A stretch of 64,000 nucleotides of DNA, taken from contig JBAQLU010000202.1 in NCBI GenBank assembly GCA_049302065.1, positions 254 to 64,253 on the forward strand, read 5' to 3'. The notes below the pieces were generated by a model. The model did not search any database. It saw only the letters and a program-made list of their open reading frames with translations, and was not told where the DNA came from. This DNA comes from Thermodesulfovibrionales bacterium (GTDB lineage: Bacteria; Nitrospirota; Thermodesulfovibrionia; Thermodesulfovibrionales; SM23-35). This document shows, in pieces, positions 11,157 to 34,016 of this stretch (positions are counted from its first letter, which is position 1; every line of letters begins with the position of its first letter). Both the position numbers and the translations under genes were made by a program.

Positions 11157-11158
11157 AG

Positions 11159-11539: not shown

Positions 11540-11563
11540 AATTTACCTCAGCAACTTTGTTAT

Positions 11564-11626
11564 TCCTGGAAAGCAGGAATCCAGAAAAAAGAAAAAACTG
11601 GATTCCGCATCAAGTGCGGAATGACA
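11564..11626. repeat. Intergenic hairpin repeat of the GGATTCCG...CGGAATGAC family
   Basis: CTGGAaagcaggaaTCCAG, then GGATTCCGCATCAAGTGCGGAATGAC. Related copies at 14572-14652 and 60544-60619. Confidence 0.6.
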
Positions 11627-11684
11627 AACTTGATCATTCATCTGAGCTTTACAGTATTACATAATAAATAAAAAGGAGGATTTT

Positions 11685-12056: not shown

Positions 12057-12090
12057 CTGATCTGATTAACTTTCCTGGATACTTTAAACA

Positions 12091-12546
12091 ATGAGCATTT
12101 TAGTCTTCGGCATAGGTAACTTACTGCGCTCTGACGATGGAGTGGGTTTGCAGGTAATTGGAGCTCTCGGGGAGGAAAAGTTAGGAGATACTATTGATGT
12201 AATAGAAGGGTCTTCCTGTATCGATATCCTCGATGCATTAAAAGGTTACAGGAGAATCATTATTGTTGATGCGATACAGACCGGAGGTGAGCCTGGTACA
12301 ATCTATAAATTTTCCCTGGAAGATTTTAAAGATAAGCATACGATCCATTCTTACTCAACCCACCTGAATATGGATTTCCCCACTATGCTCGAATTGAGGG
12401 AAAAACTCTTTCCCGGTGAAATACCCTTAGATATCATAGTTATCGCAATAGAGGCAGAGGACATAACAACGATTTCGGATACCTGCACACCAAAGGTTCG
12501 GAAAGCTATACCAGAAGCTGTTGATATGATTAAGGGATTGATATAA
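12091..12546 (+). CDS. Hydrogenase maturation endopeptidase (HyaD/HybD/FrhD family)
   Basis: ILVFGIGNLLRSDDGVG N-terminal signature, IIIVDA and a downstream His. No hydrogenase structural gene in the window. Confidence 0.8.
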   Translation: MSILVFGIGNLLRSDDGVGLQVIGALGEEKLGDTIDVIEGSSCIDILDALKGYRRIIIVDAIQTGGEPGTIYKFSLEDFKDKHTIHSYSTHLNMDFPTMLELREKLFPGEIPLDIIVIAIEAEDITTISDTCTPKVRKAIPEAVDMIKGLI

Positions 12547-14548: not shown

Positions 14549-14571
14549 TGGTAATTCCTTTGCTGTTTTAC

Positions 14572-14652
14572 GTCATTCCGACTTATTCGGAATCTTTTTC
14601 TATATTTCCAGTGTAGCAATGAAGAAGGATTCCGGACAAGCTGGAATGACGG
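14572..14652. repeat. About 80-bp MITE-like repeat bounded by GTCATTCCG ... GGAATGAC
   Basis: GTCATTCCGACTTATTCGGAATC ... GGATTCCGGACAAGCTGGAATGAC. Same architecture as 60544-60619. Confidence 0.6.
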
Positions 14653-14676
14653 CTACACAAGATTTAACAATTCATT

Positions 14677-15870
14677 TTATTTGTACATCAAATATTTTTT
14701 TCTATACTGCTTATTGAATTGTAAACACTCTTCCTGCCACCATGCTTCCATCTTATCAAGTTTTTCACCTTTTTCTATATCTTTTCTCAGTCTGTCTGTT
14801 CCTGCGAGGATGTCAATTGGCATCTTCTCATGTTCATATTCGTACGGCGGTTGTTTCCATACAAAGTGCTCTGGATAAAGGTCATGAACAGCTTTAAGGA
14901 CAGCTACTCCGGTTTTAAATGGTTTAAATTTTCCCCTGTGAGTAACGTGGATCTGCGCTCCCCCGCACAATGTGACGGCGTGTTTCTGAAAGGTAGGCTG
15001 GAAATACATCGGCCTGAAAACAAGACCGGGAAGCTTGCATTCCTTAAGATGTCTTACAAGTCTGTCTGGCTCTATAAAAGGAGCGCCGAATATTTCAAAC
15101 GGCTTTGTGGTGCCTCTTCCTTCGCTGAGGTTCGTGCCTTCAAGCAGGCACATACCAGGATATACCAGAGAAGTATCAAGTGTCGGCATATTCGGTGAGG
15201 GCATGACCCAGGGGAGACCGGTTTCATCAAACCAGGTTTTTCTCTTCCAGCCCCGCATAGGAATGACATGAAAATCCAGAGACGGGTAAAATTCATTCCT
15301 CAGATAATTGCCAATTTCTCCGATTGTCATCCCATGCCGGACAGGAAGAGGACGCTGTCCGACAAATGAAGCAAAAGCCATATCTAAAACAGGGCCCTCT
15401 GTAAGATGACCGTTAATGGGATTCGGCCTGTCGATAATTATTACAGATTTGTTCATTTCCATGCATGCCTGCATGCAGAGTTCCATCGTCCATATGAATG
15501 TATAATAGCGCGAGCCGGCATCCTGCATATCTATCACCAGTACATCAATGTCTTTCAGCATAGATGGTCCAGGTTTGCGGGCATGACCATAGAGGCTGAA
15601 TACGGGAAGTCCTGTTTTTGTGTCACGAAAACCCTCCCATTCAATCATGTTGTCCTGTGTCTCACCACGGATGCCATGCTGTGGCCCGAAGAGCGCCTTT
15701 AATTTAAATTTATTAGATTTAATAAACAGGGGGACAGCGTGTTCGAGATTCTTATTAACAGACGCGGGATGAACAAGAAGACCGACCCGTGAGCCCTTTA
15801 ATTTTTTCGGCCATTTTTTATCGATTAAATCAAGTCCGATTCGAACTGCTAAATCAGCCATTTTGCTCAA
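14677..15870 (-). CDS. DUF1343 family protein (NamZ-type exo-beta-N-acetylmuramidase family)
   Basis: 397 aa. Blocks VGLLVHPASV, LFGPQHGIRG and DMQDAGSRYYTF are typical of DUF1343. Confidence 0.75.
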   Translation of the reverse strand: MSKMADLAVRIGLDLIDKKWPKKLKGSRVGLLVHPASVNKNLEHAVPLFIKSNKFKLKALFGPQHGIRGETQDNMIEWEGFRDTKTGLPVFSLYGHARKPGPSMLKDIDVLVIDMQDAGSRYYTFIWTMELCMQACMEMNKSVIIIDRPNPINGHLTEGPVLDMAFASFVGQRPLPVRHGMTIGEIGNYLRNEFYPSLDFHVIPMRGWKRKTWFDETGLPWVMPSPNMPTLDTSLVYPGMCLLEGTNLSEGRGTTKPFEIFGAPFIEPDRLVRHLKECKLPGLVFRPMYFQPTFQKHAVTLCGGAQIHVTHRGKFKPFKTGVAVLKAVHDLYPEHFVWKQPPYEYEHEKMPIDILAGTDRLRKDIEKGEKLDKMEAWWQEECLQFNKQYRKKYLMYK

Positions 15871-16342
15871 TTACATAACTTACCTTAATATCCATATCTT
15901 TTCGCAATGAGTGATAAACAGAGCAATATTTTTCCTGAGAAAGTGAGATTGCCCGGTCAAGCTTTTTGGGAGTTATGCCTTTGCCTGCAATGCGGATTTT
16001 CATATCAACGCCACTGAAATATTTCGGCGGGACAGGATTTCTCTCTCCGATGGTTTCGATCTCGAATTTTGTTATCTCAACCTTCATCTTCTTCAGAAAT
16101 AAAACTACATCTATGGCGAGGCAACCCGGAATGCTCATCAAAAGGCTGTCAGTCGGGATGCACCCCTCCTTTGCATCAGCATCGAAGTCAATTGCATAAC
16201 CGCGGATCCTTGCAGTGAAGACCAGGTCCTTCTCCCAGGTTAAAATTCCTCTGCTAATATTGGCGACATTTTCCTTGTATCCCTCTCCCTTTAGGGTTTT
16301 GTCCAAACCGGTAAGGGAACCTTCAGCTTCCTTTTCCTGCAT
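15854..16342 (-). CDS. OsmC/Ohr-family peroxiredoxin-like protein
   Basis: 162 aa with the OsmC fold pattern and Cys residues in EGCIPTD, PGCLAIDV and EKYCSVYHSL. Confidence 0.75.
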   Translation of the reverse strand: MQEKEAEGSLTGLDKTLKGEGYKENVANISRGILTWEKDLVFTARIRGYAIDFDADAKEGCIPTDSLLMSIPGCLAIDVVLFLKKMKVEITKFEIETIGERNPVPPKYFSGVDMKIRIAGKGITPKKLDRAISLSQEKYCSVYHSLRKDMDIKVSYVIEQNG

Positions 16343-16366: not shown

Positions 16367-17125
16367 TTAAGGAATTGTATCAATTGAGGCAAACTTGGGT
16401 TCATGAAGCGGCAAGAGAATATCTGCCATATTTTTCACTTTAAGCACGATATCGTAAGCATCATATACATTGACATGAGTTCCGGGAGGTATTACTTCCA
16501 TCTCCATTGCCTTTATCTTTGGAGGCGGATTGAAATTTTCCATGATTAGACAGAAGCCTGTTATAGCAGCTTTCCCCTGTTCGGTGTCTATGAGGACTGT
16601 CATGCCACCTTCAGTATGTGCAGGGGTGTGAATCATTTTAATGCCGGGAAGGATTTCCGTATCCCCTGTGAGCTTTTTTATCTGACCTTTTTTTTCCACA
16701 TCTGTAATAAAATCTTCGTTGTAGCGGAAATCCAGCGGATGGGGATTATGTATTCTCTCCAGTTCTTTTTCATGGACATAGAATGTAGCGTTAATGCATT
16801 TATCATCGTTTTCACAATGGTCGTTATGTAAATGGGTATGTATAACAATATCGATATCTTCAGGCTTCAATCCCCATCGGCTCAACCCTTCCTCAAACTT
16901 GTAAATTTTTCCGCCGATTCCTTCCTCCCTGTCCCTGGTCTGCATTGGCGCCATTTCTCCTGTATCAACCAGTATTTTCTTGTCACCGCCCTCGAGATAC
17001 CAGCAATAGATGGGTATGGTATAAGGTTTTCCATAGTCATGCTGGTATGTCATCATGCCTTTATCAAAAGCCTTTGTCCCCATAACTATAGGATGTATTT
17101 TGTAGGTCTTAGCTTGCAAATTCAT
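16367..17125 (-). CDS. MBL-fold hydrolase (N-acyl-homoserine-lactonase-like subgroup)
   Basis: HTHLHNDHCEN (HxHxDH), plus later HTPAHTEG and a conserved Asp/His. Confidence 0.75.
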   Translation of the reverse strand: MNLQAKTYKIHPIVMGTKAFDKGMMTYQHDYGKPYTIPIYCWYLEGGDKKILVDTGEMAPMQTRDREEGIGGKIYKFEEGLSRWGLKPEDIDIVIHTHLHNDHCENDDKCINATFYVHEKELERIHNPHPLDFRYNEDFITDVEKKGQIKKLTGDTEILPGIKMIHTPAHTEGGMTVLIDTEQGKAAITGFCLIMENFNPPPKIKAMEMEVIPPGTHVNVYDAYDIVLKVKNMADILLPLHEPKFASIDTIP

Positions 17126-17137: not shown

Positions 17138-17407
17138 TTATCTTTTTATTATATCAAATCTTGCTATCTCTACCTTCATCTTCTTTAAAAATAACCTTAC
17201 GTCAATAGCCAGACAACTTGGTAGGCCCATCAATAGACTATCCGTTGGAATATATCCTTCCTTTGCATCAGCGTCAAAATCAATTGCATATCCACAAATC
17301 CTTGCCGTAAAGACTATGTCTTTTCCCCAGGTTAAAATCCCTCTGCTTGTGTTCGCTGCGTTTTTCTTATAGAGGTTTCGAGTTGAGCGGAGAACCCCGA
17401 ACTTCAT
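17138..17407 (-). pseudogene. Truncated paralogue of the OsmC gene (covers roughly residues 20-105 only)
   Basis: NTSRGILTWGKDIVFTARICGYAIDFDADAKEGYIPTDSLLMGLPSCLAIDVRLFLKKMKVEIARFDI aligns colinearly with the 15854-16342 product. It lacks the C-terminal third. Confidence 0.65.
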
Positions 17408-17689: not shown

Positions 17690-17914
17690 ATGTCAGTGGT
17701 AAAATTAGACACAACCGGACTCAGATGTCCCGAGCCGATACTGAAGATTGCTGCAAAATTAATGGATATGAAGCCCGGTGATGTTCTTGAAGTGATCGGA
17801 GATTGTTCGACCTTTGAGCGAGATGTCCGTAACTGGTGTAAGAGGATGAAGAAGACACTTTTGTTTATCAAGGATGAAGGCGCCGGCAGGATAAGTTGTC
17901 AGATACAGTTTTAG
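17690..17914 (+). CDS. TusA/SirA-family sulfur-carrier protein
   Basis: 74 aa with LDTTGLRCPEPILK (the CPxP active-site motif). Confidence 0.85.
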   Translation: MSVVKLDTTGLRCPEPILKIAAKLMDMKPGDVLEVIGDCSTFERDVRNWCKRMKKTLLFIKDEGAGRISCQIQF

Positions 17915-18285
17915 ATATCTGGTGAGGAAATCAAGGCTTATCGAAAAAATGAGATGCTGGGGGTTTCTTAAATGCACTGAAAGGGAAGTCCTGTTTACAG
18001 GATGAATAATGATTTCTTCCGGTGATCCGACAGTCAAAATTCCTGAGAGATCGAGAGTCGAGTTGATTACCAAACTGGAGCATATGGCGAACATGAGCTT
18101 TTCTCTCCGGATTATTTTAGCAATATACTTAAACTTGTGAATAGAAAACAACCTATAAACTGAAATATTAGGATTTGTAATCTAATAAAAAGCTATTGAC
18201 ATTTTCAAAGGAACTATGATATTTTTTCACCTATCCAACGAATAGTACAAGTTCTCATATAGAATTTAAGGAAGGGGAACGGTTT

Positions 18286-19542
18286 ATGAGCGAATCAGCA
18301 AAATGGGATTGGGATACAAAAGATAAATTAGTAGCAAACCTCAATGATTGGAAAAAGAAGTTTATCGACCTTCGTGAATTAACCCCCTCTGATGACGGTG
18401 AAAAAATAGCCGCAGTAGTCCAGCCGGAAAAAGGAAAATTTACCACCTGTGTCAATGGAGATGTCTGGGAAGAGAAGTTTGAGAGAGTATACTCGCTTAA
18501 GTTCAAACCTGATAATCAGCTTATATCTTCAACATACAGAGATTATATATGGGCTTTAGCTGTTGATCATGAGATGTGGGAAGAAACATTTGATTTCATA
18601 TGGAACCTGACATTAACTCAGGATGGAAAAGGTATTGCCGTGAACATCAAACGGGATCCGCAACTTGGAGCTGCATTGAATGGACAGGTGTGGGAGGCCC
18701 TATATATGGATGCAAGACATCTTGCTGTAAGCCCAGATGGACAGAAGACTGCTTCATGTATTCAGACACAACCCATGAAGACATTAGATATTTTTACCTA
18801 TCAGAAAGGTATCTGGACCGTTGCAGTAGATGGAACTCCTTGGGAAAAGACTTTCTGGACTGTCTGGGGACCTGTCTTTAGCTCTGATAGTAATCATATA
18901 GCTGCATGCGTAAGGACAGGGTTTGCTCAATATAATATCGCAGTAGATGGAAACACATGGGAAGGGCCATTTGGTTTAGTGTGGGAGCCAATTTTTAAAC
19001 CAAATAGCAATGATGTCATTGCGCCTATCAGAACTCCGAAGGGCACTACACTCGCAATGAACGGAAAGCCGATCTGGGGATTTTTCTTCAATGTATGGCG
19101 TCAGAGATTCAGTCCCGATGGTCAAAAGTTAGCTGCGGTTGTTGTCCCCGCATTTTCTCGGTGGACAATTGCGGTTGATGGTACACCCTGGGGCACTACA
19201 TTCAGCGATGCAGTTCTCTCTCCAGTATTCAGCCCGAATAACAAACGGGTCGCTGCAGTAGTAAAAGATAACAACAGGTGGTTAGTTGCCATTGATGGTA
19301 CACCATGGGCAGAAAAATTCGATAACGTATGGGACCCTGTCTTTAGCCCTGATAGCAATACAGTGATAGCAAAGGCTGAAAGAAACGGTAAGTTTTATAT
19401 AGTTGTTGACGGTAAGGTTGGCAAAAAAGGGTACGAATATCTGTGGAATCCTGTTTTTAGCTCGGACGGAAAGAAATTGTTAATCCGCTGCGTTGATGGT
19501 GGAAAGTATTACCGGAAAGTAATTCCAATCAATGAAATATAA
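18286..19542 (+). CDS. Cytoplasmic beta-propeller-like protein built from about 9-10 PD40-like repeats
   Basis: Roughly 40-aa periodicity of (S/K)PD(G/S)xxIAxxV...(V/I)AVDGxPWxxxFxxVWxPVF. No signal peptide. Only 14 bp upstream of the HmcE-like gene. Confidence 0.6.
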   Translation: MSESAKWDWDTKDKLVANLNDWKKKFIDLRELTPSDDGEKIAAVVQPEKGKFTTCVNGDVWEEKFERVYSLKFKPDNQLISSTYRDYIWALAVDHEMWEETFDFIWNLTLTQDGKGIAVNIKRDPQLGAALNGQVWEALYMDARHLAVSPDGQKTASCIQTQPMKTLDIFTYQKGIWTVAVDGTPWEKTFWTVWGPVFSSDSNHIAACVRTGFAQYNIAVDGNTWEGPFGLVWEPIFKPNSNDVIAPIRTPKGTTLAMNGKPIWGFFFNVWRQRFSPDGQKLAAVVVPAFSRWTIAVDGTPWGTTFSDAVLSPVFSPNNKRVAAVVKDNNRWLVAIDGTPWAEKFDNVWDPVFSPDSNTVIAKAERNGKFYIVVDGKVGKKGYEYLWNPVFSSDGKKLLIRCVDGGKYYRKVIPINEI

Positions 19543-19556
19543 TGCAGGAGTGAGAA

Positions 19557-20231
19557 ATGTATGACTTTATAAAAGACCCGTCATTATATAATTTCGTGAG
19601 AGGACCATTAGTTTGGATTGCATTTTTTGTATTCATTGGTGGCAGTATCTATAAAATAAGAGAACTGCTTTTACTCGCCAAGAAAGAGAAAGTTGTTTAC
19701 CCCTACATGAGTTTAAAATTTACCCTCCGTTCCCTTTTACACTGGTTCGTACCATTTGCCAGTGCTAACTGGAGAAGGCGCCCTGTAATTACAATAGTGA
19801 CCTTTCTCTTCCATATCGGTCTTGTTTTGCTCCCCATATTCCTCCTTGCACATAACATCCTTATCTACGAATCCTGGAGGATAAGTTGGTGGACAGTTTC
19901 CGAAGGATTGGCAGATATCATGACTATGATAGTCATTGGTTGCTGCATTTTCTTTTTCCTGCGGAGAATTTTTGCTCCAGAAGTAAGATTTGTTACCTTT
20001 GCTGATGATTATTTAATACTCGCAATCGCCTTTTTACCTTTCCTTACCGGGTTCCTCGCATATCACCAGTGGTTATTGCCTCATAAAACCATAGTGATAC
20101 TTCATATGCTTTTTGGGGAAGTTATGTTAATTGCTATTCCGTTTACCAGGTTAGGGCATATGTTTTATTTCTTTTTAACACGGGCATATATGGGTTCTGA
20201 TCATGGTTATCGTCATTCAAAGGACTGGTAA
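19557..20231 (+). CDS. NarI/DsrM/HmcE-like dihaem cytochrome b membrane subunit
   Basis: 224 aa with five hydrophobic helices and conserved His residues (FLFHIG, LLAHN, ILHMLFGE, RLGHMFYF). Confidence 0.75.
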   Translation: MYDFIKDPSLYNFVRGPLVWIAFFVFIGGSIYKIRELLLLAKKEKVVYPYMSLKFTLRSLLHWFVPFASANWRRRPVITIVTFLFHIGLVLLPIFLLAHNILIYESWRISWWTVSEGLADIMTMIVIGCCIFFFLRRIFAPEVRFVTFADDYLILAIAFLPFLTGFLAYHQWLLPHKTIVILHMLFGEVMLIAIPFTRLGHMFYFFLTRAYMGSDHGYRHSKDW

Positions 20232-20256
20232 TTTTAAATTATGGAGGATTATATAG

Positions 20257-21639
20257 ATGGCTGAAGTAAGCATTAAAGAAAGCGTCAAGACAAAAGATTG
20301 GATTGAGCTGAAAAGAAAACCGGTTGCTGATCCAGGCTTTGATATAACTGTTAAAGATCTTACTCCGGAAAAGATAGAAAAAGCAGTAAATGCTGTTTTG
20401 AATATTGGGAAAAATGCAGGACGTTTCATGGCACCCTTAGAGACGTGTATTCACTGTGCGCTCTGTTCTGATGCATGTCATTGGTATCTCTCCCATGACA
20501 AAGACCCTACTTATGCACCTGTTGCCAAAGTTAAAATGACTCTTTGGGAGCTGATCAAAAGAAAAGGGAAGGTAAGCCCTGAATTCATGAAACAGGTTGC
20601 AAGGATTGTCTTTTGTGAATGCAATCTCTGCCGTCGTTGCAGCATGTATTGTCCCTTTGGGCTTGATATAGCCTATCAATTGGGCATGGTCCGCCGCATA
20701 TGTTTTATTCTTGGGTTAGTTCCTCAAAACATACTGGATCAGACCCATAGCCTTTCAGCTACCTTAACCCAGTTATGGATCACCCAGGGTGACTGGATCG
20801 ATACCATGCAGTGGCAGGAGGAGGAGGTAAGGGGGGAGATCAAGAATGTCCGGATTCCTATTGATAAGGAAGGGGCAGAGGTAATGTGGTGTCCTCTGGG
20901 AACAGAACCGAAAGTGGCAACCTATCATATTGCCCGTACAGCGAAGATCATGAATGTTGCGGGGATTGACTGGACTGTAGCTGCCCAGGATGGCTGGGAC
21001 AGTGCAAACATGGGGATGTTTATCCGTGACATGGAGACGATGCAGAGGGTTGTACGGGGCATTTATGACAATGCCATGAGGTTAAAGATCAAACGAATAG
21101 TACTGACTGAGTGAGGGCATCCACTGAATGCCACATGTTATGTGGCACCGCCGCTGATGGGATGGAAGGATAGTCCGATAGAGACATTGCATCCGATTGA
21201 GTTTTATTATGAGCTTGTTAGCACTGGAAAAATAAAGATAGATAAAAATAAGAAGATTAAAGGCCCTATTACCATTCAAGATCCGTGTAATCTTGTAAGG
21301 CTGAGAGGGAGAGCAGAGATGATCCGGTACCTTGTAAACGAGACATGTGAAGGTCCTATTATAGAAATGCAACCAAACCGTGAATATAATTATTGCTGTA
21401 ATGGCGGTGGAGGTGGAAATGCCATTGGCTCGCCATGGAAAGGCAATAGATGTGCAGGAGCCCGTATTAAGGCTGAGCAGATTAAGGCTACTGGGTGTCA
21501 CAATATTTGCGCCCCATGTCATAACTGTTATACCAGCATCAATGATGTAATAAAGTATTACAATCTCGAAGGTCATGCCATGTTTATGGATGAAATAATA
21601 ACCAATACCATGGAAGTTCCCGATGAATTTAAACCATGA
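20257..21639 (+). CDS. HdrD/DsrK/HmcF-like Fe-S (CCG-domain) oxidoreductase with an in-frame TGA (putative selenocysteine) at 21112-21114
   Basis: Track ORFs 20257..21114 and 21142..21639 are in the same frame, separated only by TGA. N-terminal half has CIHCALCSDAC and CNLCRRCSMYCP. C-terminal half has DPCNLVR...YCCNGGGG...CAPCHNC. The context is RIVLTE-[TGA]-GHPLNA. There is no SD or ATG for an independent second ORF. Confidence 0.65.
21129..21147 (+). other. SECIS-like hairpin 14 nt downstream of the in-frame TGA
   Basis: TGCCACAT-GTT-ATGTGGCA, an 8-bp perfect stem with a GUU loop. An alternative 5-bp hairpin GGCAT-ccactga-ATGCC lies at 21116-21132. Confidence 0.5.
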
Positions 21640-21666
21640 TAATAAGCCGGGAAGGATGAGAATATT

Positions 21667-23343
21667 ATGAAAAAAGGGTGGATTGTTTTTATTGTTGGAC
21701 TGTGCTATCTCATCTTGATTATTTACGGCATCGGCAGTATATATTCCAATGAAACCCCAATGGAGGTGAAGAAACCTGTTCAGAAAATCCCTGTTCAAAA
21801 ACTGGATGATAAAATTTCTATTGCCCATACAGCTATCTTTGGGGCATTGGAACGTCCGCAGGTGATTTTCGACCATAAGAAACATATTGATGAATTGATA
21901 AAGGATGGCAAAAAAGAATGGGAGACCTGTGACTCCTGCCATCCCTGGAATGAGGACAAAACGCAAATGTCCTTTATCTTCCCCAAAAAAGTTGCGAAAA
22001 AAGATAAAGATTCCTATATGAATGCTTACCACGATGAGTGCATGAATTGTCATAAAGAGAGAAGCCAGCAGAAAAAGAAGGGTGGCCCGGTGACCTGTGG
22101 CGATTGCCATCCGGAAAAGCTTTCCACAGTGCAATATAAATATCCGATCATGGAGTTCACTTACGAACATCATGACAACCACGATAAAAAATTAAAAGAA
22201 AAGAATATTCAGGATAGCTGTATTTACTGCCATCATATATATAATGAAGAAAGTGTTTATGAAAAAGGAAAGGAATGGTCATGTTATTACTGCCACGAGA
22301 TAGGTAGGAAGACAGGACCGGTTCTTGCAGTTGAGACAAGAATTATCGGTAAGAAAGGCCTCGGTTTAGAAAAAGTCTCCCACATGCGCTGCCTGAACTG
22401 CCATCTTTACTTTAAAAAGCAAGATGAAGGAAAGATCAAGGCAAAAGACGAAAAAGAAGCTCCCCTTGAATGTGTGAAATGCCATACTGGCAAATACAAG
22501 ACAGTTGCCGAACTGGAAAAGGTTCCACGCCCTGACAGCGGGCAGTCTGAAAAGGCATTTTTAGAGATAGAAAAGTCCAAGATGAAGGGGGTTCCGTTTG
22601 ACCATAAGGCCCATCAAACCAAATCCAAGACATGCAGGGGATGCCATCACGAAACACTGAACGCATGCAAGGAATGTCATACGCTTGTTGGAAATCCTGA
22701 CGGTAATAACGTCAATCTTGCCGGCGCTTACCATGATATTTCCTCTGAAAAAAGCTGTTCAGGATGTCATTTTGTGCAGCAATCTGCAAAAGATTGTAAT
22801 GGGTGCCACCATGCTCTTATGCCTGTTGATGCCCAGACAAAAGGACCAAAGAAAGCAATCTGTGCAATCTGCCATTCCGGAAAGCGCGAACTTCTTCCTG
22901 CAACAAAGCTTTCTGTGAAAGGACTCGATACAGAGAAGGTCAAAAAGGAGGTTGAAGTAAAGATTCTTGAGAGAGAATATGACCCTTCAAAATTACCTCA
23001 TGTGAAGATCATCGAAAAAATGACACAGATCTCGAACGATGACAAATTGGCTTCCTATTTCCACAGGAATCTCCAGACTCTCTGTGAAGGATGCCACCAC
23101 CAGAGCAGGGCCGAGGCTGAAGCCAAGAAAGACGAGCCGCCCTATTGCAGGAACTGCCATTCCATTGCTTTTGATCCGCAGCGCCTTAACAGGCCGCGGC
23201 TTCTTGCTGCTTATCATCGCCAGTGTATACAGTGTCATGAAAAGATGGAACTCAAGAAACCAAAGGAATGTAAGGAATGTCATAAGGAAAAGGAAGTGCG
23301 CCCGACGGATATTCTTTCAAAACCAGCGGAAACAAGCCGGTAG
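21667..23343 (+). CDS. 16-haem c-type cytochrome (HmcA-like) with N-terminal signal/anchor helix
   Basis: 558 aa. I count sixteen CxxCH motifs (CDSCH, CMNCH, CGDCH, CIYCH, CYYCH, CLNCH, CVKCH, CRGCH, CKECH, CSGCH, CNGCH, CAICH, CEGCH, CRNCH, CIQCH, CKECH). Hydrophobic N-terminus. Confidence 0.85.
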   Translation: MKKGWIVFIVGLCYLILIIYGIGSIYSNETPMEVKKPVQKIPVQKLDDKISIAHTAIFGALERPQVIFDHKKHIDELIKDGKKEWETCDSCHPWNEDKTQMSFIFPKKVAKKDKDSYMNAYHDECMNCHKERSQQKKKGGPVTCGDCHPEKLSTVQYKYPIMEFTYEHHDNHDKKLKEKNIQDSCIYCHHIYNEESVYEKGKEWSCYYCHEIGRKTGPVLAVETRIIGKKGLGLEKVSHMRCLNCHLYFKKQDEGKIKAKDEKEAPLECVKCHTGKYKTVAELEKVPRPDSGQSEKAFLEIEKSKMKGVPFDHKAHQTKSKTCRGCHHETLNACKECHTLVGNPDGNNVNLAGAYHDISSEKSCSGCHFVQQSAKDCNGCHHALMPVDAQTKGPKKAICAICHSGKRELLPATKLSVKGLDTEKVKKEVEVKILEREYDPSKLPHVKIIEKMTQISNDDKLASYFHRNLQTLCEGCHHQSRAEAEAKKDEPPYCRNCHSIAFDPQRLNRPRLLAAYHRQCIQCHEKMELKKPKECKECHKEKEVRPTDILSKPAETSR

Positions 23344-23369
23344 AAATCCGGTAGAAAGAGGAGGATTGG

Positions 23370-23483
23370 ATGTATATCTTTGAACAACTATTTTCCCATC
23401 ACGGATACGAATATGCTGTTGCCGTTTTGGCAATGTTTATTTTTATATTATTCTATTTTATCCTCACTTCAGAAAGAAAATAA
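23370..23483 (+). CDS. 37-aa single-helix membrane peptide (possible HmcD-like small subunit)
   Basis: Absent from the ORF track because it is under 60 aa. AGAGGAGG SD 5-6 nt before the ATG. MYIFEQLFSHHGYEYAVAVLAMFIFILFYFILTSERK has one hydrophobic helix. Confidence 0.45.
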   Translation: MYIFEQLFSHHGYEYAVAVLAMFIFILFYFILTSERK

Positions 23484-23502
23484 ATGGCATGGAGGCTAAC
23501 TC

Positions 23503-24531
23503 ATGAGTATTGATAGAAGAGAATTCCTGAAGCGCTCTTTAACCATGGCAGGCACTACATTGCTCAGTGGTGGAACCATAGCCCATGCTATAGATAAACG
23601 TGATCCGTCCATTCTCTCTACCGGCAACACAGCCAATGAAAGAAACTGGAAGTTATGGGTTGAGAAGTCTGAGACCCTTGTTCCTGAAAAATATGGAGTT
23701 CTTGTTGATACAACGGTCTGTATCGGATGCCGGAGATGTGAGTGGGCATGCAATGAATGGAATAAAAATCCAAACAGACCGATAAAAGAGTTTGAAGCGT
23801 CGGTATCTCAGCAAAAATCTGCTTTCGATACGGTGCGGAGAATGCACGCCGGAAATTTTACCGTAGTAAATCGCTATATGAGCTCCAAAGACGGAAAACC
23901 TATATATGTAAAAAGGCAGTGTATGCACTGCGATGATCCGGGGTGTTTATCTTCGTGCTTTGTTGATGCATACAGGAAGGCGAAAAACGGTCCGGTTCTC
24001 CATAATGCAGGAGTGTGTATAGGGTGCCGTTATTGTATGGTAGCCTGTCCTTTTGACGTGCCTGCCTATGAGTATTACGCACCCCTGAATCCGCAAATCA
24101 CAAAATGTACGTTCTGCTTCGATAGAATCTCGAAAGGAAGTGTGCCGGCCTGTGTCGAGATTTGCCCCGCCGGAGTACTGACCTTCGGAAAAAGAAACGA
24201 TCTCATGAAGCTTGCTTACGAAAGGATAGGAAATAGCCCTAATAAATATGTCGATCATGTATATGGAGAGCACGAGGTAGGAGGTACAAGCTGGCTCTAT
24301 CTGTCATCAGTTCCTTTCCACGAAATAGGTCTGAGAACAGATCTCGGGAAAACACCTATACCGGAACTAACCAAGGGGTTTCTTCTTGGAGTAAAGGTGT
24401 TCGAGATAGTCGCTGCATGGCCTCTTGTTTTCGGGGCCTATTATGCAATCTCAAAGGCTCGTGAAAAAACAAGATCGGGACATGAAACGTCTGTTGAAGG
24501 AAAGGGAGAAGGTCATGGCGAAAAACACTAA
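23503..24531 (+). CDS. Periplasmic 4x[4Fe-4S] ferredoxin subunit (HmcB/DsrO/NrfC-like) with Tat signal and C-terminal anchor helix
   Basis: DRREFLKRSL twin-arginine motif. Cys clusters CIGCRRCEWAC, CMHCDDPGCLSSC, CIGCRYCMVACP and CTFC...CVEICP. Hydrophobic VFEIVAAWPLVFGAYYAI near the C-terminus. Confidence 0.85.
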   Translation: MSIDRREFLKRSLTMAGTTLLSGGTIAHAIDKRDPSILSTGNTANERNWKLWVEKSETLVPEKYGVLVDTTVCIGCRRCEWACNEWNKNPNRPIKEFEASVSQQKSAFDTVRRMHAGNFTVVNRYMSSKDGKPIYVKRQCMHCDDPGCLSSCFVDAYRKAKNGPVLHNAGVCIGCRYCMVACPFDVPAYEYYAPLNPQITKCTFCFDRISKGSVPACVEICPAGVLTFGKRNDLMKLAYERIGNSPNKYVDHVYGEHEVGGTSWLYLSSVPFHEIGLRTDLGKTPIPELTKGFLLGVKVFEIVAAWPLVFGAYYAISKAREKTRSGHETSVEGKGEGHGEKH

Positions 24532-25729
24532 TTCTTGGTTTAGAGAAAAGATACTTCTTGGAAAATCCAATAGAGATTTTATTATCAGTTGTGCTACACC
24601 GGGGAATTTCATTGCAGGTTTTATTCTGTTCTATGCGGTTATCGTAATGATTTATCGTCTTTTCTTTGGCCTTGGACCAGCGACAAATCTAACAGATAAC
24701 TATCCATGGGGTTTCTGGATCGGATTTGATATACTTGTCGGAATCGCGTTAGCAGCTCCGGGTTTAACCCTTGGAACAGCAGTACATCTCTTTGGGATGA
24801 AGCAATATCACCATTTTGTACGTCCGGCGATTCTCTCAAGCCTTCTCGGGTATATTTTTGCGGTATTTGCACTTCTGTTTGACCTTGGCCGTTATTATCG
24901 CATCCCTTACCTCTTAGTATGGTCGTGGGGATTTTCTTCAGTATTGTTCTTAATAGGTTGGCACTTTACGCTTTATATTAATATTTGTCTCATTGAGTGG
25001 AGTCCTGCTCTCTTTGAATGGTTGAATCTCAGGAAGCTCCGGGAATTTTTTCAAAAGATGGCGATATGGGCAACCATTTTCGGAGTCATTATAGCCGGTG
25101 GCCATCAGTCTGCACTTGGTGGTTTGTATCTTATTGCTCCTGCAAAACTCCATCCCCTCTGGTATTCAATGTTCTTGCCTGTATTTTTCCTCCTGTCCGC
25201 TGTATTCGCAGGAATTTCTATGGTGATTTTTGAGAGTACCATTACCCACAGAGTTTTCAAAAGTCAGCTTAAAAATTTCAATCAAGCTGAATTTGACAAA
25301 CGCACCATTGGCCTCGGTACGGCAGCAGCAGCAGGTTTGTTCATCTATTTTATTCTAAAAATATTTGATATTGCTCATTATGGCAACTGGGCATATCTGA
25401 ATACTTTCTATGGATTCTGGTATTTGGTTGAGGTAATTGGGTTTGTTCTCCTGCCGGCTATGCTCTTTACATCGGGAGTAAGAAACCGGAATGCAAAGCT
25501 TATACGTCTTACAGGATTTTTGACCGTATGTGGTGTTATATTAAACCGATTGAATATATCTATCTTTGCATATAATTGGCAATTCCCCGCCTCAATGAAG
25601 TATTACCCAAAATGGATGGAGATTATGCTGTCAATCGGCGTGGTTACTATGGTAGTTATTGCCTATCGGTTTATTGTAAAACGGATGGCTATCATGCACG
25701 ATCACCCTGATTATGAATCAGGGCACTAA
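24515..25729 (+). CDS. NrfD/PsrC/HmcC/DsrP-like polytopic quinone-interacting membrane subunit
   Basis: Highly hydrophobic multi-helix protein. The in-frame ATG at 24515 with a GGGAGAAGG SD gives a 17-nt overlap with the upstream gene. The track start at 24425 is rejected. Confidence 0.8.
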   Translation: MAKNTNSWFREKILLGKSNRDFIISCATPGNFIAGFILFYAVIVMIYRLFFGLGPATNLTDNYPWGFWIGFDILVGIALAAPGLTLGTAVHLFGMKQYHHFVRPAILSSLLGYIFAVFALLFDLGRYYRIPYLLVWSWGFSSVLFLIGWHFTLYINICLIEWSPALFEWLNLRKLREFFQKMAIWATIFGVIIAGGHQSALGGLYLIAPAKLHPLWYSMFLPVFFLLSAVFAGISMVIFESTITHRVFKSQLKNFNQAEFDKRTIGLGTAAAAGLFIYFILKIFDIAHYGNWAYLNTFYGFWYLVEVIGFVLLPAMLFTSGVRNRNAKLIRLTGFLTVCGVILNRLNISIFAYNWQFPASMKYYPKWMEIMLSIGVVTMVVIAYRFIVKRMAIMHDHPDYESGH

Positions 25730-28790: not shown

Positions 28791-29012
28791 TCCCCATCAG
28801 AAAATCCTGTAAACCTTAAATCCGTAAGCTCACGGTATAAATAATTTCGTATAGAAAGACTCAGCACACTTCTCAGTCGACTGGCGCGATGTTCTCAAAG
28901 AAACAAACACTCCAGGGCATCCTGATAATACTGCGGAGTACGACTCGGAATGGTCAAGTAAGCCCATAAAAGAAAGCCGCCCCCCTATCGACTAAACATT
29001 CCTCAACGTCAG

Positions 29013-29696
29013 TTATATCGCTTGTTCCAGCAGTTGACCATGCTCCTTTAACCAGGCCTTTGCCTTATCCATGGTCGAAGTTCGTGCGCGGACGATGTTC
29101 CAGAACCTGGGCGTGTGGTTGGCCTCCATGAGGTGGGCGAGTTCATGGACGATGACGTAGTCGATGACAAACATCGGCGCTTTAATCAGGCGCCAGTTAA
29201 AATTGACGTTGTCATTCAGGGTGCAGGAACCCCAACGGTAACGGTTGTCCACGATCTTGACCCCGGCAATATCAACGCCGAGGTCGCGGGCGTGAAGCTT
29301 CACTCGTGGGACAAGCTTTTCTTTGGCCTTGCCGATATACCATTCCAACAAGGCCTCTGTCCGCTTCTCCCCACGTGCAGCCGGAATAAGGAACCGCTGG
29401 CTGAACTGAACCCCGGCCAGCCCCGTTTTGACTACCTCGATCCGGTATTGACGGCCCAGATAGAGCGCAGATTCGCCGCTGACCAGTTCCTTCCCAGGGG
29501 CATGGGGCAGGTCCTGATATTTCTGCGAATGACCGATTTTTTCGTAAATCCATTGGCGCTTTGATTCCACCACCTGTTGGATTGTTTCGTCGGATATTCC
29601 TTCCGGAGCATGTACCGCTACCCTACGATCTCGCTCGACGGTGATGGTCAGTTTGCGTCGCTTGACAGATTTTTGGATGGTGTATACCAATTTCAT
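29013..29696 (-). CDS. DUF45/YgjP-type zinc metallopeptidase (M48-like)
   Basis: HELAHLMEANH (HExxH) near the C-terminus. Immediately downstream of hsdR, a common association. Confidence 0.8.
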   Translation of the reverse strand: MKLVYTIQKSVKRRKLTITVERDRRVAVHAPEGISDETIQQVVESKRQWIYEKIGHSQKYQDLPHAPGKELVSGESALYLGRQYRIEVVKTGLAGVQFSQRFLIPAARGEKRTEALLEWYIGKAKEKLVPRVKLHARDLGVDIAGVKIVDNRYRWGSCTLNDNVNFNWRLIKAPMFVIDYVIVHELAHLMEANHTPRFWNIVRARTSTMDKAKAWLKEHGQLLEQAI

Positions 29697-29700
29697 TCAA

Positions 29701-32700
29701 CTATTCCGCGTAGAGAATGATATCGTTTTTCTTCTCTGCGATTTCCATGAGCCGGCTGATGATATGTGCACGGTTCTTCACGATACGGGGGAGCTTTGCA
29801 AACTCCGGCGCAAGCAATATCTTTTGAAGCTCCGCCCTTAATTTACTGCGCGCAGGAATGCTCTCCCAGAAACCGGTGAGTTTCAACTCTCGCTCTACAG
29901 CCAGAAAAGCCTTCTGCGTCAGGTCAACCAAATGGCTGATCCTGTCCTCCCGGCTTATACCATAGGGCGGTGTCGCCTCAGCAACCTTCAACAGATCAAA
30001 GACATTTCCTGCAGTTCCTTCACCAAATATCTCCCGCTCAAACATACGGAAGAACGGCATTTGCTTCTTCCGGTGAAGCCCATAAGTCGGCTCCTTTCCG
30101 GCGTTGATGATCCGTGCCCTGAGCTTTTCGAGCTCTTCGTAAATCTTTTTCCAGTTGTTGCGGAACTCCTCAAAGATCTTCGCCAATGCCTCGGCAAAAG
30201 AGGCCTGCAAATCCGGGTCGTCGTCCAATTCTATGTCGAGGTGGTGGCGAATGGCGTGTTCAACCTCCGCAGCCTTGGTCTTGGTGCGGTTTCGTTTGCC
30301 CACCTGCTTCTCAAAGTCTTGATCAAGGATCGAGATCGGTTCGATCTTCACGTCGATCCCTTTTGACTCAAGCCAGGCGTCAGTAATACTACGCAGCTTG
30401 GGCGGGATGCCTTTCATGCTCAGCCGCTCGTCCCGAAAGTGCTTCCCGGCCAGCACATTGATCTCGTTAAGTGCATTGTAGTCACGCATGTACTCCAGAG
30501 CCTGCCTGGCAGGGAAAACCAGATTCAGGCACTTGGTCAGCTTCTTGAACGCCAGCATGAAGTCGAACCGCAGGTCTTCGTCATAAAACAGGTCGAAAAA
30601 CGCATCATGATCGGTCAGGTCTGTCAGGCCGTGCTTTTTGAGCAGGTCCATGATCGCCGCATGGCTCGCCTTGAGTTCGCGCAGTTCTTCCTCGGGAAAA
30701 CTGAGGGCATCGAGCACTTCCTTCTGTTCCCGCTCGTCGTAGTTGTCGATCGCCTTTTTGAGGTGGTGCCCGACACCGACATAATCGACCACAAAGCCCT
30801 TGTCCTTGGCTTCACCTGCCACGCGGTTCACACGGGCAATGGCCTGAAGGAGGCTGTGCGCAACGATCACCTTATCGAGATACATCACCTGTTCCACCGG
30901 CGCATCGAAGCCTGTCAGGAGCATGTTATTGACGATCACAATACCCATATCGCCCGTAACCCCTTCATCTTCATTACCAAAGGCCATCTTAAAGCTCTTG
31001 ATGCTGGTCTCGTGCTTTGACCTGTCCGAAAAGGCCTTGAGGTGCGGCAGGTCATTGTGGCTGCCAGAGATGATAACGTCTGTTTTCAGCCTTTTGAGTT
31101 GGTCAAGATCGAGCTTCTGCGGGTTGGCCTTTTCCAGATCAACAAAGGTATCCGCCAAGGCGGCATCGATATATGTTTTATATCGCACCGCAGCCTCTCG
31201 TGAGGTGGCAACTACCTGTGCCTTATATCCGTTGGGGAAGACATGCGTCAGGTAGTGGTCCACCATGTCTTTGGCCTTGGCCTCGATGGTAGTCTTGGAT
31301 TCCAGATAGGCATCGCGGGAGCCGTAACCAAGGATCTCCATACGCTGCTTCAGGTTATAGTCGCTGAACACATCCTCAAACGCCGCGTCCATCCCTTGCC
31401 GGTCCTTGACCTCGGCCTTATGCGTCCGGCCTTCATAAACGATCTCCAGGGTCACTCCGTCTTCGATAGACTGGCGCATGGTGTACTTGTCTATGTAGTC
31501 GCCGAAGACCCGTTCGGTCTTGTCAATGGGAGTGCCGGTGTAGCCTATCCGGGCAGCATTGGGCAGGCCTTTGTCAAAGTTTGCGCCAAGCTGCGCGTAT
31601 TGGGAACGGTGCGCCTCGTCGGTCATCACCAGAATGTTAGGGCTGGTGTTCAGCTCTGGGAAGACCTCGGTCAAGTCGGCTTCGCGGAACTTGTGGATCA
31701 TAGCCATGACCAGATCAGAGGAGTCTGAACGCAGGAGTTCCTTCAACTTTTTAATGCTGTCAGCTACTTTCACGGTAAAGCCGATGCTCTGGCTGGTCTC
31801 GGAGAGCTGGCCTTCCAGTTGGGTCCGGTCAGTAACAAAGACCACCTTCCAATGCGATAGATGGGCGTGGCGATACATCTCGCGCACCATAAACATCATG
31901 GTCAGCGATTTGCCCGATCCCTGAGTATGCCAGATGACGCCACTCCTCTCGCGCGGGCTCTTTCCTTCCAACAGTCGCTTGACCGCCAGTTTGACGGCGC
32001 GGAATTGCTGGTAGCGACCCACGATCTTGATGGTCTCGCCCTTATCGTTCGTTCCGAAGAGGGTAAAGGTTCGAATGAGGTCAAGCAGGTTGTCGCGGTC
32101 CAGCATCCCTGCAACCAGTCGCTGCTGATCATTCGGTCCGCTCGTGCCGTGATACAGGTCGTCAACGGTTCGGGGATAAGGGTCAGCCCAGCGATAGAAG
32201 TATTTCTCGCTGTGGGTTGTGATGGTGCCGAACTTTGCTTCCTGGCGGCAGGTGGCGATAACGATCTGGTTGTAATAAAACAGCGGTGCGCTGCCTTCGC
32301 CTTTTGCACCGCGCTGTTCGCTATATCGAAGCATCTGGTCAATGGCTTCAGGAATGGCGTCTTTCACCTTGGGTGATTTGCACTCGATTACAACCACAGG
32401 CAGGCCGTTCAGAAACAGCACGATGTCTGGGACGATGTGGTATTCAGTGCCAAGGATGCGCACCTTGAATTGGCAGACAGCAATAAAGCGGTTGTTGTAC
32501 CGATGTGTGAAGTCCACAAAACGAACTGTCGGACTTTTCTCGCCGGTCTGGCGGTTTTCGCTGACACTGGTGTTTTCGAGCAAGAGGGTGAAGACGTGGC
32601 GGTTGTTCTGGATCAGGCCAGTGCCAGGGAAACTGGCAGTGAGTTGCTTGACAACCTCTTCCACCTGATCGTCTTCCAACCAGTCATTGATGACTTTGAT

Positions 32701-32892
32701 TTGCTCACGCAAGACCGACAGCATCACCACTTCGGTAAAGCTCTGGCGAAAGCTGTCACTCGGGTGCTGTTTGCTGTCGAGGTCGAGGATTTCCCAGCCC
32801 AAGCCCGCAAGCTGGTCGAGTAAGGGTTTCTCGACGTGCTTGCGCTCGTCTATTCTCAAGTACGAAGTTTGAGGGGTAAAGTTTGAAGTCAC
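29701..32892 (-). CDS. hsdR: Type I restriction enzyme R subunit
   Basis: 1063 aa. N-terminal PD-(D/E)xK region VPDIVLFLNGLPVVVIECK, SF2 motifs HTQGSGKS and MTDEAHRSQ, and a helical C-terminus. GTG start overlaps the upstream stop (GTGA). Confidence 0.92.
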   Translation of the reverse strand: MTSNFTPQTSYLRIDERKHVEKPLLDQLAGLGWEILDLDSKQHPSDSFRQSFTEVVMLSVLREQIKVINDWLEDDQVEEVVKQLTASFPGTGLIQNNRHVFTLLLENTSVSENRQTGEKSPTVRFVDFTHRYNNRFIAVCQFKVRILGTEYHIVPDIVLFLNGLPVVVIECKSPKVKDAIPEAIDQMLRYSEQRGAKGEGSAPLFYYNQIVIATCRQEAKFGTITTHSEKYFYRWADPYPRTVDDLYHGTSGPNDQQRLVAGMLDRDNLLDLIRTFTLFGTNDKGETIKIVGRYQQFRAVKLAVKRLLEGKSPRERSGVIWHTQGSGKSLTMMFMVREMYRHAHLSHWKVVFVTDRTQLEGQLSETSQSIGFTVKVADSIKKLKELLRSDSSDLVMAMIHKFREADLTEVFPELNTSPNILVMTDEAHRSQYAQLGANFDKGLPNAARIGYTGTPIDKTERVFGDYIDKYTMRQSIEDGVTLEIVYEGRTHKAEVKDRQGMDAAFEDVFSDYNLKQRMEILGYGSRDAYLESKTTIEAKAKDMVDHYLTHVFPNGYKAQVVATSREAAVRYKTYIDAALADTFVDLEKANPQKLDLDQLKRLKTDVIISGSHNDLPHLKAFSDRSKHETSIKSFKMAFGNEDEGVTGDMGIVIVNNMLLTGFDAPVEQVMYLDKVIVAHSLLQAIARVNRVAGEAKDKGFVVDYVGVGHHLKKAIDNYDEREQKEVLDALSFPEEELRELKASHAAIMDLLKKHGLTDLTDHDAFFDLFYDEDLRFDFMLAFKKLTKCLNLVFPARQALEYMRDYNALNEINVLAGKHFRDERLSMKGIPPKLRSITDAWLESKGIDVKIEPISILDQDFEKQVGKRNRTKTKAAEVEHAIRHHLDIELDDDPDLQASFAEALAKIFEEFRNNWKKIYEELEKLRARIINAGKEPTYGLHRKKQMPFFRMFEREIFGEGTAGNVFDLLKVAEATPPYGISREDRISHLVDLTQKAFLAVERELKLTGFWESIPARSKLRAELQKILLAPEFAKLPRIVKNRAHIISRLMEIAEKKNDIILYAE

Positions 32893-33743: not shown

Positions 33744-33769
33744 CTTCCGCTCCCTTTATCCCTTTTCTA

Positions 33770-33952: not shown

Positions 33953-34016
33953 TGGTATATCTCCTTTTCTTGATTGATTTTGATTCCATTGCTTTGCTGC
34001 GTGCCTCAATGAAGCC

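Follow-up and report, generated by a model that had tools for sequence, protein, structure and literature searches.

A Tmc/Hmc-family transmembrane redox operon with a very probable selenocysteine in TmcB from a Thermodesulfovibrionales bacterium

Hmc and Tmc are classic, poorly understood redox complexes of sulfate-reducing bacteria. HmcABCDEF of Desulfovibrio vulgaris (Rossi et al. 1993) has a 16-haem cytochrome c (HmcA), an HmcB-type ferredoxin with four clusters, an NrfD-like membrane protein (HmcC) and a small hydrophobic peptide, in a two-module transmembrane layout that ends in a cytochrome b and a CCG protein. TmcABCD of the same species has a Trp-rich cytoplasmic TmcD and a TmcB with a T/GECGH motif and a single CCG site (Pereira et al. 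2006); its cytochrome, TmcA, is a tetrahaem type II cytochrome c3. NhcABCD contains a periplasmic Hmc-family cytochrome with nine haems together with FeS, NrfD and small subunits, and DsrMKJOP carries the trihaem DsrJ. Here we describe a related locus at positions 18286-25729 of a 64,000-nucleotide stretch of DNA from a Thermodesulfovibrionales bacterium of the phylum Nitrospirota (the window; positions 254 to 64,253 of contig JBAQLU010000202.1, assembly GCA_049302065.1). The locus is probably one tightly packed operon, tmcD-tmcC-tmcB(Sec)-hmcA-hmcD'-hmcB-hmcC, encoding a two-module transmembrane electron-transfer system of the Hmc/Tmc family. Judged by model scores, it is the cytoplasm-side half of Tmc (B, C, D) joined to the periplasm-side half of Hmc (A, B, C), and an in-frame UGA in tmcB is very probably a selenocysteine (Sec) codon. 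The features of the locus are as follows.

18286..19542, + strand: tmcD, 418 aa, cytoplasmic, Trp-rich (22 Trp, 5.3%) beta-propeller protein with no transmembrane (TM) segment
19557..20231, + strand: tmcC, 224 aa, NarI-like membrane cytochrome b anchor with 5 TM segments and 9 His
20257..21639, + strand: tmcB, 460 aa, cytoplasmic HdrD/DsrK-like iron-sulfur protein, read through an in-frame UGA
21112..21114, + strand: in-frame UGA predicted to be read as Sec, motif L-T-E-U-G-H-P
21129..21147, + strand: hairpin UGCCACAU-GUU-AUGUGGCA resembling a selenocysteine insertion sequence (SECIS), with an 8-bp stem beginning 14 nt past the UGA
21667..23343, + strand: hmcA, 558 aa, periplasmic 16-haem cytochrome c with one N-terminal hydrophobic segment (signal or anchor)
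23370..23483, + strand: HmcD-like peptide (hmcD'), 37 aa, one TM segment, between hmcA and hmcB
23503..24531, + strand: hmcB, 342 aa, periplasmic ferredoxin, predicted to be Tat-exported, with four [4Fe-4S] motifs and a C-terminal TM anchor
24515..25729, + strand: hmcC, 404 aa, NrfD-like integral membrane subunit with about 8 TM segments, its start overlapping the end of hmcB by 17 nt
18196..18225, + strand: promoter-like site (TTGACA, 16-18 nt spacer, GATATT/TATTTT) in the gap between TusA and tmcD, about 60 nt upstream of tmcD

All seven genes of the unit lie on the + strand in the open reading frame (ORF) list of the window. From tmcD to hmcC the intergenic gaps are, in order, 14, 25, 27, 26, 19 and -17 nt, against 371 nt between TusA and tmcD, and the unit is therefore drawn as seven genes from 18286 to 25729. 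An earlier note on this DNA, made from the letters alone, had listed six of these ORFs, all of which are present on the + strand where it placed them; its start at 19557 is one gene too late, because tmcD lies 14 nt before the cytochrome b gene. A ribosome-binding site, GGAAGGGG, precedes the tmcD ATG, and the hmcC start is backed by full-length tblastn alignments across related loci. The promoter-like site is weak because a consensus scan finds as many such sites in the region as shuffled sequence would give. A 366-aa GTG-initiated ORF runs antisense over the tmcB/hmcA junction (21082-22182, - strand) and is most likely a chance ORF opposite conserved coding sequence.

Family membership was called by bit score against the curated NCBIfam equivalog models and their cutoffs, since none of the Desulfobacterota HmcA loci (L055-L057), which lack a TmcB/HmcF-like gene within 9 kb, gave canonical hmcEF references for a tree. 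The periplasm-facing module would consist of HmcA, HmcB, HmcC (NrfD-like and quinone-interacting) and the small HmcD-like peptide. HmcA carries exactly 16 CxxCH motifs, scores 455 bits on the HmcA model (cutoff 400) and matches solved HmcA structures from three Desulfovibrio species over its full length (2e84, 1gws, 1h29 and 1z1n; E 1e-56 to 1e-70). The earlier view that the locus encodes a transmembrane redox complex of the Hmc family, with a genuine HmcA of 16 haems, is thereby borne out. The C-terminal half of HmcA also matches nine-haem cytochromes. The likeness to NhcABCD extends to the FeS, NrfD and small subunits; unlike Nhc, which has 9 haems and neither cytochrome b nor CCG subunits, the window has 16 haems and a complete cytoplasmic module. 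No small tetrahaem TmcA gene occurs in the locus, and a c3-like domain within HmcA reaches 95 bits on the TmcA model (cutoff 114). The locus differs from TmcABCD in having HmcA with HmcB, HmcC and the small peptide instead of TmcA, and thereby an NrfD-type quinone module that is absent from Tmc. In the ferredoxin a twin-arginine motif (RREFLK) is accompanied by four cluster motifs that contain 16 Cys, a TM segment at residues 292-310 and a Pfam Fer4_11 match; its top model is HmcB (361 bits, cutoff 420), followed by HybA (202) and DsrO (84, cutoff 200). The NrfD protein likewise has HmcC as its top model (472, cutoff 550; HybB 246) and matches Pfam NrfD at E 5e-16.

The 37-aa peptide is probably a divergent HmcD that has been relocated to between hmcA and hmcB, as a chain of profile matches suggests. 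It is kept in that position in most related loci (55-97% identity), and the loci without it have a 39-55-aa ORF after hmcC instead. A profile of the bona fide HmcD of locus L056 (63 bits on NCBIfam HmcD) finds the after-hmcC peptides at E 1e-6 to 1e-2, and the profile of these in turn finds the hmcA-hmcB peptides at E 5e-9 to 0.5. Nearly all peptides linked by this chain outrank every decoy among 7617 small ORFs.

The cytoplasm-facing module would consist of TmcC, which is the NarI-like cytochrome b, of TmcB, which bears a CCG-type non-cubane cluster site besides its two [4Fe-4S] motifs, and of TmcD. With 295 bits the cytochrome b exceeds the TmcC cutoff of 240, and its 199 bits on HmcE stay below the cutoff of 275; its match to Pfam Nitrate_red_gam (E 2e-4) falls short of the Pfam threshold. 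The CCG protein, with the site CCN...CAPCHNC and Pfam matches to Fer4_8 and CCG, scores 547 bits on TmcB (cutoff 735), 356 on HmcF (cutoff 750) and 176 on DsrK (cutoff 400), and a Cys-type TmcB orthologue in the same operon arrangement (L002) passes the TmcB cutoff with 774 bits. A sequence search of the PDB with TmcB gave no match. The product of tmcD exceeds the cutoff of its model (TmcD_fam, 486 bits against 440). Its AlphaFold2 model (pLDDT 95.4) is all-beta and forms a large beta-propeller, for which Foldseek returns only WD40/beta-propellers, the top TM-scores belonging to 9-10-bladed ones. The gene stands directly upstream of tmcC in nearly all related loci. The beta-propeller fold that had been proposed for the product of this upstream gene thus agrees with the structural model; the separate sulfur-relay partner that had been suggested alongside it is TmcD itself.

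These scores bear on whether the locus is simply a canonical Hmc operon in another order (hmcE-F-A-D-B-C) with an unrelated propeller gene upstream. Each of the six Hmc subunit types does have a counterpart here, HmcE and HmcF are the second-best models for the cytochrome b and the CCG protein, and the corresponding Thermodesulfovibrio N1 cluster has been published as "Hmc". The cytochrome b nevertheless clears the TmcC cutoff and misses that of HmcE, and for the CCG protein the TmcB score exceeds the HmcF score by about 190 bits. Cys-type orthologues in the same arrangement reach 716-774 bits on TmcB, passing its cutoff or nearly so, and their HmcF scores amount to only about half the cutoff of that model. 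Upstream, at a distance of 14 nt, stands a bona fide TmcD gene whose position is conserved. We therefore regard a mere reordering of Hmc as improbable. The earlier description of a rearranged Hmc fits the HmcABC(D) half of the locus and fails for the cytoplasm-side half, which scores as TmcBCD; the cytochrome b and CCG genes are not orthologues of HmcE and HmcF. Compared with HmcABCDEF, the window has a Tmc-type cytochrome b and CCG protein, TmcD, a relocated HmcD-like peptide, Sec in place of the catalytic Cys, HmcB and HmcC below their equivalog cutoffs, and the order D-C-B-A-D'-B-C against A-B-C-D-E-F. Its likeness to TmcABCD lies in the TmcC and TmcD scores above cutoff, TmcB as top model, the Trp-rich TmcD and the TmcB motif (T-E-U-G-H in the window) with its single CCG site; its TmcB belongs to a divergent all-Sec clade.

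The gene order does differ from that of Desulfovibrio hmcABCDEF and does parallel dsrM-K-J-O-P, as had been pointed out, and a Dsr/Hmc hybrid was proposed on that ground, with DsrM/DsrK-like subunits and an Hmc cytochrome in the DsrJ position. TmcB and DsrK moreover share the ECGH motif. The Dsr models argue strongly against a hybrid: DsrK and DsrO score far below their cutoffs (176 against 400 and 84 against 200), neither DsrM nor DsrP is matched, and in the tree every TmcB is far removed from its outgroup, a genuine DsrK-like protein (L067, DsrK score 361 bits). At the level of model scores the hybrid is ruled out, and we give it almost no credence. The order alone resembles dsrMKJOP, since in each of the two systems a module of cytochrome b and CCG protein is combined with one of cytochrome c, FeS and NrfD proteins. 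The locus shares with DsrMKJOP this modular logic, the ECGH catalytic motif, a single non-cubane cluster site and the likely substrate class (DsrC), whereas no window subunit reaches a Dsr cutoff, a 16-haem HmcA stands where DsrMKJOP has the trihaem DsrJ, and TmcD and the small peptide are additional. It is an analogue of DsrMKJOP, at most a distant paralogue, and not a member.

A further feature of the locus is the codon at 21112-21114. This in-frame TGA aligns with the conserved Cys of the GECGH motif in Cys-type TmcB and in the DsrK-like protein, and it is the reason why the mechanical ORF list gives two entries of 285 and 165 aa; the length of about 460 aa that had been noted for the CCG gene holds, and an uninterrupted frame does not. 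Among the 61 HmcA-anchored loci described below and related loci, the homologous tmcB codon is TGA in 40 and TGC or TGT in 13 (two further regular-expression matches, in another gene, were left out). Every gene with TE-TGA-GHP has a hairpin, UGCCACAN-GUU-NUGUGGCA, 14 nt after the TGA. When 35 loci, with 29 distinct sequences, are aligned, 95.7% of the cells are paired and two pairs show compensatory changes; none of 500 shuffles matches the observed pairing or covariation, and controls slid along the alignment are 22-58% paired. The compensatory changes swap the encoded Ser-Phe for Cys-Tyr. They thus alter residues, which argues for selection on RNA structure. Rfam gave no match for the whole window and none around the UGA at E <= 10. 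Because a conserved, covarying hairpin follows the UGA, the tmcB UGA is very probably a selenocysteine codon. In a neighbour-joining tree of TmcB rooted on the DsrK-like protein, the window TmcB falls in an all-Sec clade of Nitrospirota and Thermodesulfobacteria. A second clade is mostly Cys-type, and one of its subclades (TSE[U/C]GHSF) mixes Sec and Cys members and has its own hairpin type. Sec-type tmcB is also carried by the MAGs (metagenome-assembled genomes) L043-L045 and L052. The TmcB orthologue in GCA_014859105.1 has an NCBI annotation as one protein of 462 aa.

An "Fe-S oxidoreductase (GlpC)-like" family with the motif UGH is on record in selenoprotein surveys (PMC1794560; PMC13188914), and Sec in TmcB therefore represents a new subfamily context rather than a new kind of selenoprotein. 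Like this GlpC/HdrD-like family, the window protein has a U-G-H motif in a CCG-domain Fe-S protein, Cys homologues and a hairpin of bacterial SECIS type; it differs in being the cytoplasmic subunit of a membrane Tmc/Hmc complex of Nitrospirota and Thermodesulfobacteria. It has also to be asked whether the TGA is a genuine stop, in which case tmcB would be a pseudogene or would make two products, a dicluster protein of 285 aa and a CCG protein of 165 aa. Gene callers do split tmcB, no Sec machinery is visible in the window, and the Sec-type TmcB scores below its Cys-type relatives on the TmcB model (547 against 605-774 bits). A stop is nevertheless hard to reconcile with a TGA at the identical codon in 40 loci of two phyla, always where homologues have Cys, with a frame and sequence conserved on both sides and through the gap (the next start is a GTG 9 codons downstream), and with an adjoining hairpin that is conserved and covaries. 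The UGH family is known, and the window holds a second gene of Sec type. We consider a genuine stop extremely unlikely and treat tmcB as a gene read through its UGA.

That second candidate selenoprotein gene, at 56372-57184 on the - strand, encodes a DsbC-like thiol:disulfide interchange protein with Pfam DsbC_N and thioredoxin-like domains. An in-frame UGA at 56714-56716 gives the active site U-P-Y-C, a 7-bp hairpin lies at about 56681-56698, and the region folds far better than shuffles (z = -2.9). Thiol:disulfide interchange selenoproteins with UxxC are a known family. A further ORF of 89 aa (17138-17407, - strand), considered as a possible selenoprotein gene with read-through, was dismissed, since it nearly repeats, in truncated form, the N-terminal half of the OsmC-like gene at 15854-16342 (- strand). 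The two copies flank a gene for a metallo-beta-lactamase-fold protein (16367-17125), and the ORF looks like what is left of a partial duplication.

The gene order of the window is found in many other genomes. An HmcA-anchored scan of GTDB species representatives, with subunits placed by tblastn, gave 61 loci. About 45 of them show tmcD-tmcC-tmcB-hmcA-(peptide)-hmcB-hmcC, an order that appears on every contig of sufficient length. The carriers are Nitrospirota/Thermodesulfovibrionia, Thermodesulfovibrio, Thermodesulfobacterium, Thermodesulfatator and one MAG of Zixibacteria; the order is also present in the complete genome of Thermodesulfovibrio sp. 3907-1M (CP144373, L065) and in a Deltaproteobacteria MAG. 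The assembly collection contains no exact match to the window HmcA, and the closest species representatives share 87-89% identity with it. In loci with this order the CCG protein scores 605-774 bits on TmcB (above the cutoff in L002) against 342-389 on HmcF, and the cytochrome b passes the TmcC cutoff. Genes THER_1440-1444 of Thermodesulfovibrio sp. N1, in the same order, have been published simply as an "Hmc complex" (PMC5165239), and so the order, for which the earlier note had suggested a survey, is largely documented already, in many genomes and in the N1 report. The N1 and 3907-1M clusters belong to the same phylum and share with the window the CCG protein, 16-haem cytochrome, small gene, periplasmic ferredoxin and NrfD protein, and in 3907-1M tmcD and tmcC stand upstream as well; they differ from the window in having only 42-64% identity and a TmcB that uses Cys (GECGHAF) rather than Sec. 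In the N1 description, which counts four subunits, neither the Tmc-type cytochrome b nor TmcD nor the affinity to Tmc is mentioned. Public protein names for the operon neighbours are generic. In the searchable literature, a scope that leaves out Pereira et al. 2011 (Front Microbiol 2:69), we found no analysis of this arrangement as a Tmc/Hmc composite. The arrangement is common and has been seen before; it is a widespread, poorly described variant.

The two halves of the operon have distinct histories. When pairwise-identity matrices are correlated over 30 complete loci, TmcD, TmcC and TmcB agree with one another (r 0.71-0.88), as do HmcB and HmcC (r 0.96), whereas the Tmc subunits agree with HmcB and HmcC at only r 0.2-0.4; HmcA is intermediate (r 0.47-0.73 with the Tmc subunits). 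The closest HmcA/B/C relatives of the window (82-90% identity) have a TmcB at only 55-57%, and the closest TmcB relatives (91-92%) have an HmcA at 52-68% and, in L029, HmcB and HmcC at 40-45%. On these identity patterns the Tmc and Hmc halves are exchangeable cassettes that recombine between genomes. Three loci (L002, L003 and L009; Nitrospirae bacterium Kmv42, JACUUX010000008.1) have two tandem tmcDCB sets, the first with Sec-type and the second with Cys-type TmcB, before a single hmcA-peptide-hmcB-hmcC (locus coordinates 884-12037 and 13892-17662 of L002). About 2 kb downstream is a cluster of genes whose products have Pfam AIRS/AIRS_C (SelD-type), Se_S_carrier, TusA and Sulf_transp (YedE-type) domains, and this setting suggests exchangeable Sec/Cys modules linked to selenium supply. 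A tmcDCB set stands alone, without a cytochrome c gene, in L066. In L056 (Deltaproteobacteria MAG, 9001-15341), the place of hmcE and hmcF after hmcA-hmcB-hmcC-hmcD is taken by two other genes, one for a protein of 501 aa that has an HdrC-like domain and one for an HdrB-like protein of 331 aa. Two complete tmc-hmc loci occur in tandem on one contig (L025, 2-13003) or about 15 kb apart (L026 and L042, contig CAVWBP010000011.1), and such paired loci in Thermodesulfovibrionia genomes differ in module type, with the peptide either between hmcA and hmcB or after hmcC.

Given such mobility, it is conceivable that one operon yields two separate complexes that are linked only via the menaquinone pool and together form a redox loop. 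HmcA-D'-B-C would then be an Nhc/Qrc-like cytochrome c:menaquinone oxidoreductase, and the TmcA-less TmcBCD a DsrMK-like menaquinol:DsrC (or other thiol) oxidoreductase. In favour of this, Tmc and HmcBC do evolve and recombine as independent modules, tmcDCB occurs by itself in L066, TmcA-less Tmc operons are known from Seep-SRB1a/g (PMC10553843), hmcABCD is found with HdrC/B-like cytoplasmic partners in L056, and the tandem tmcDCB sets of L002 precede a single hmcA-BC. Tight packing and strict co-linearity across several phyla, on the other hand, suggest that the subunits assemble together in fixed stoichiometry. Canonical Hmc has been described as one complex of six subunits in this two-module layout, and the identity of HmcA partly correlates with that of the Tmc subunits. 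We leave two complexes as a minority possibility and prefer a single two-module system.

In the proposed mechanism, HmcA would take electrons from a periplasmic hydrogenase or formate dehydrogenase via soluble cytochrome c3. The electrons would pass from HmcA through HmcB to the membrane subunits HmcC and TmcC, linked by direct transfer or by the menaquinone pool, and would reach the clusters and CCG site of TmcB, where a cytoplasmic sulfur-bridged thiol substrate would be reduced. Sec beside the CCG cluster site would attack this substrate, for which DsrC trisulfide or persulfide is the most plausible candidate. From homology with Hmc, Tmc and DsrMKJOP we infer the donors, the direction of flow, the substrate and the physical unity of the modules. 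The T/GECGH motif is conserved in DsrK, HmcF and TmcB and is probably essential for catalysis (Barbosa et al., PMC10861901). Cryo-electron microscopy of DsrMKJOP shows Cys329, which is followed by Gly and His331, to be persulfidated, and a sulfur relay to the non-cubane cluster has been proposed (bioRxiv 10.64898/2026.08.25.746951). The placement of a predicted Sec at the E-C-G-H Cys, a non-ligating residue beside the cluster, points to nucleophilic or sulfur-relay chemistry. DsrC/TusE-like genes adjoin the tmc-hmc operon in four related loci (L018 4186-4533, L024 7815-8153, L030 4340-4653 and L014 5147-5329), which is a modest hint at DsrC as substrate; the L018 gene stands directly after hmcC, and its protein ends in ...GRECG without the usual DsrC C-terminal spacing. 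TusA had been put forward as a sulfur-relay partner. It is present at 17690-17914 with a CPEP motif, 371 nt upstream of tmcD and with the promoter-like site between, but it is not syntenic beside the operon in relatives; the link is weak for that reason, and TusA was rejected as a partner.

Several results weigh against this account of the locus. TmcB, HmcB and HmcC all score under their NCBI equivalog cutoffs, and we therefore treat them as divergent members of their families. The 37-aa peptide of the window reaches only E = 0.25 against the intermediate profile and has no direct match to NCBIfam HmcD, to Pfam or by BLASTP, which is why its assignment is held at probable. The 60-nt stretch that contains the tmcB hairpin folds no better than shuffles (z = -0.24), so folding energy is not used as evidence for a SECIS and the support is conservation. 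None of the genes selA, selB, selC and selD is visible in the 64-kb window, in which no tRNA was found, nor does it contain a dsr, apr, sat or DsrC gene. For the Sec-decoding machinery there are indirect hints, namely the DsbC-like gene of the window with its own UGA and hairpin, and the SelD-type (AIRS-domain) gene close to the orthologous operon of L002/L003. Even in Desulfovibrio the cytoplasmic partner of Hmc and Tmc is a matter of proposals, which name both DsrC and ferredoxin (PMC4215793), and the free recombination of the modules means that they could be separate complexes. With these points counted, we still find a single two-module Hmc/Tmc-family operon the likely identity of the locus.

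A broader interpretation can be offered only tentatively, and we think it possible rather than probable as a whole. The operon may represent an ancestral Hmc/Tmc form. The Hmc of Desulfovibrio would then be a descendant that lost TmcD, and Tmc one that lost HmcBCD and had its cytochrome shortened. The all-Sec TmcB may be a selenium-dependent reductase of DsrC-trisulfide or persulfide, with Sec as a relay nucleophile equivalent to Cys329 of DsrK. The tandem tmcDCB sets may be exchanged according to selenium supply, and the Sec and Cys cassettes of L002 would then be chosen in a manner analogous to Vhu/Vhc in Methanococcus.

Two other parts of the window deserve mention. Between ilvBN and two heptosyltransferase genes, the region of about 28800-42500 has a G+C content of 0.49-0.54 against about 0.42 elsewhere and carries genes for a YgjP-like peptidase, a type I restriction-modification system (HsdR, HsdS, HsdM), a BRO-N protein, a Ser/Thr kinase and a Fic protein. 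At L001, a syntenic locus, these glycosyltransferase genes follow ilvBN almost directly, and the block therefore looks like an inserted island. On the + strand at 2516-12546, a cluster resembles the "orange protein" (ORP) region of Desulfovibrio. It includes a sigma-54 activator, an MrpORP-like Fe-S carrier ATPase, small proteins with MrpORP C-terminal/Nitro_FeMo-Co domains, a MinD-like ATPase with a ferredoxin insert, a CGGC-domain protein and a HycI-type hydrogenase maturation protease.

The composite of HmcABC(D) and TmcBCD is prevalent in Nitrospirota and Thermodesulfobacteria, outside Desulfovibrio. What textbooks separate as "Hmc" and "Tmc" therefore mirrors the situation in Desulfovibrio, and such loci are annotated inconsistently gene by gene, under generic names. 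In most of these genomes tmcB is broken in two by gene callers, and the catalytic subunit may consequently be overlooked when the metabolism of Thermodesulfovibrionia is reconstructed. The main interest of the locus lies in the exchange of Sec and Cys at a proposed catalytic Cys and in modular evolution. Natural Sec/Cys exchange at the Cys of E-C-G-H provides independent comparative evidence that this residue has a redox or nucleophilic role and is not a structural residue or a cluster ligand. It supports the sulfur-relay role proposed from the DsrK structure, and it argues for a thiol, persulfide or trisulfide substrate such as DsrC over electron transfer to ferredoxin only.

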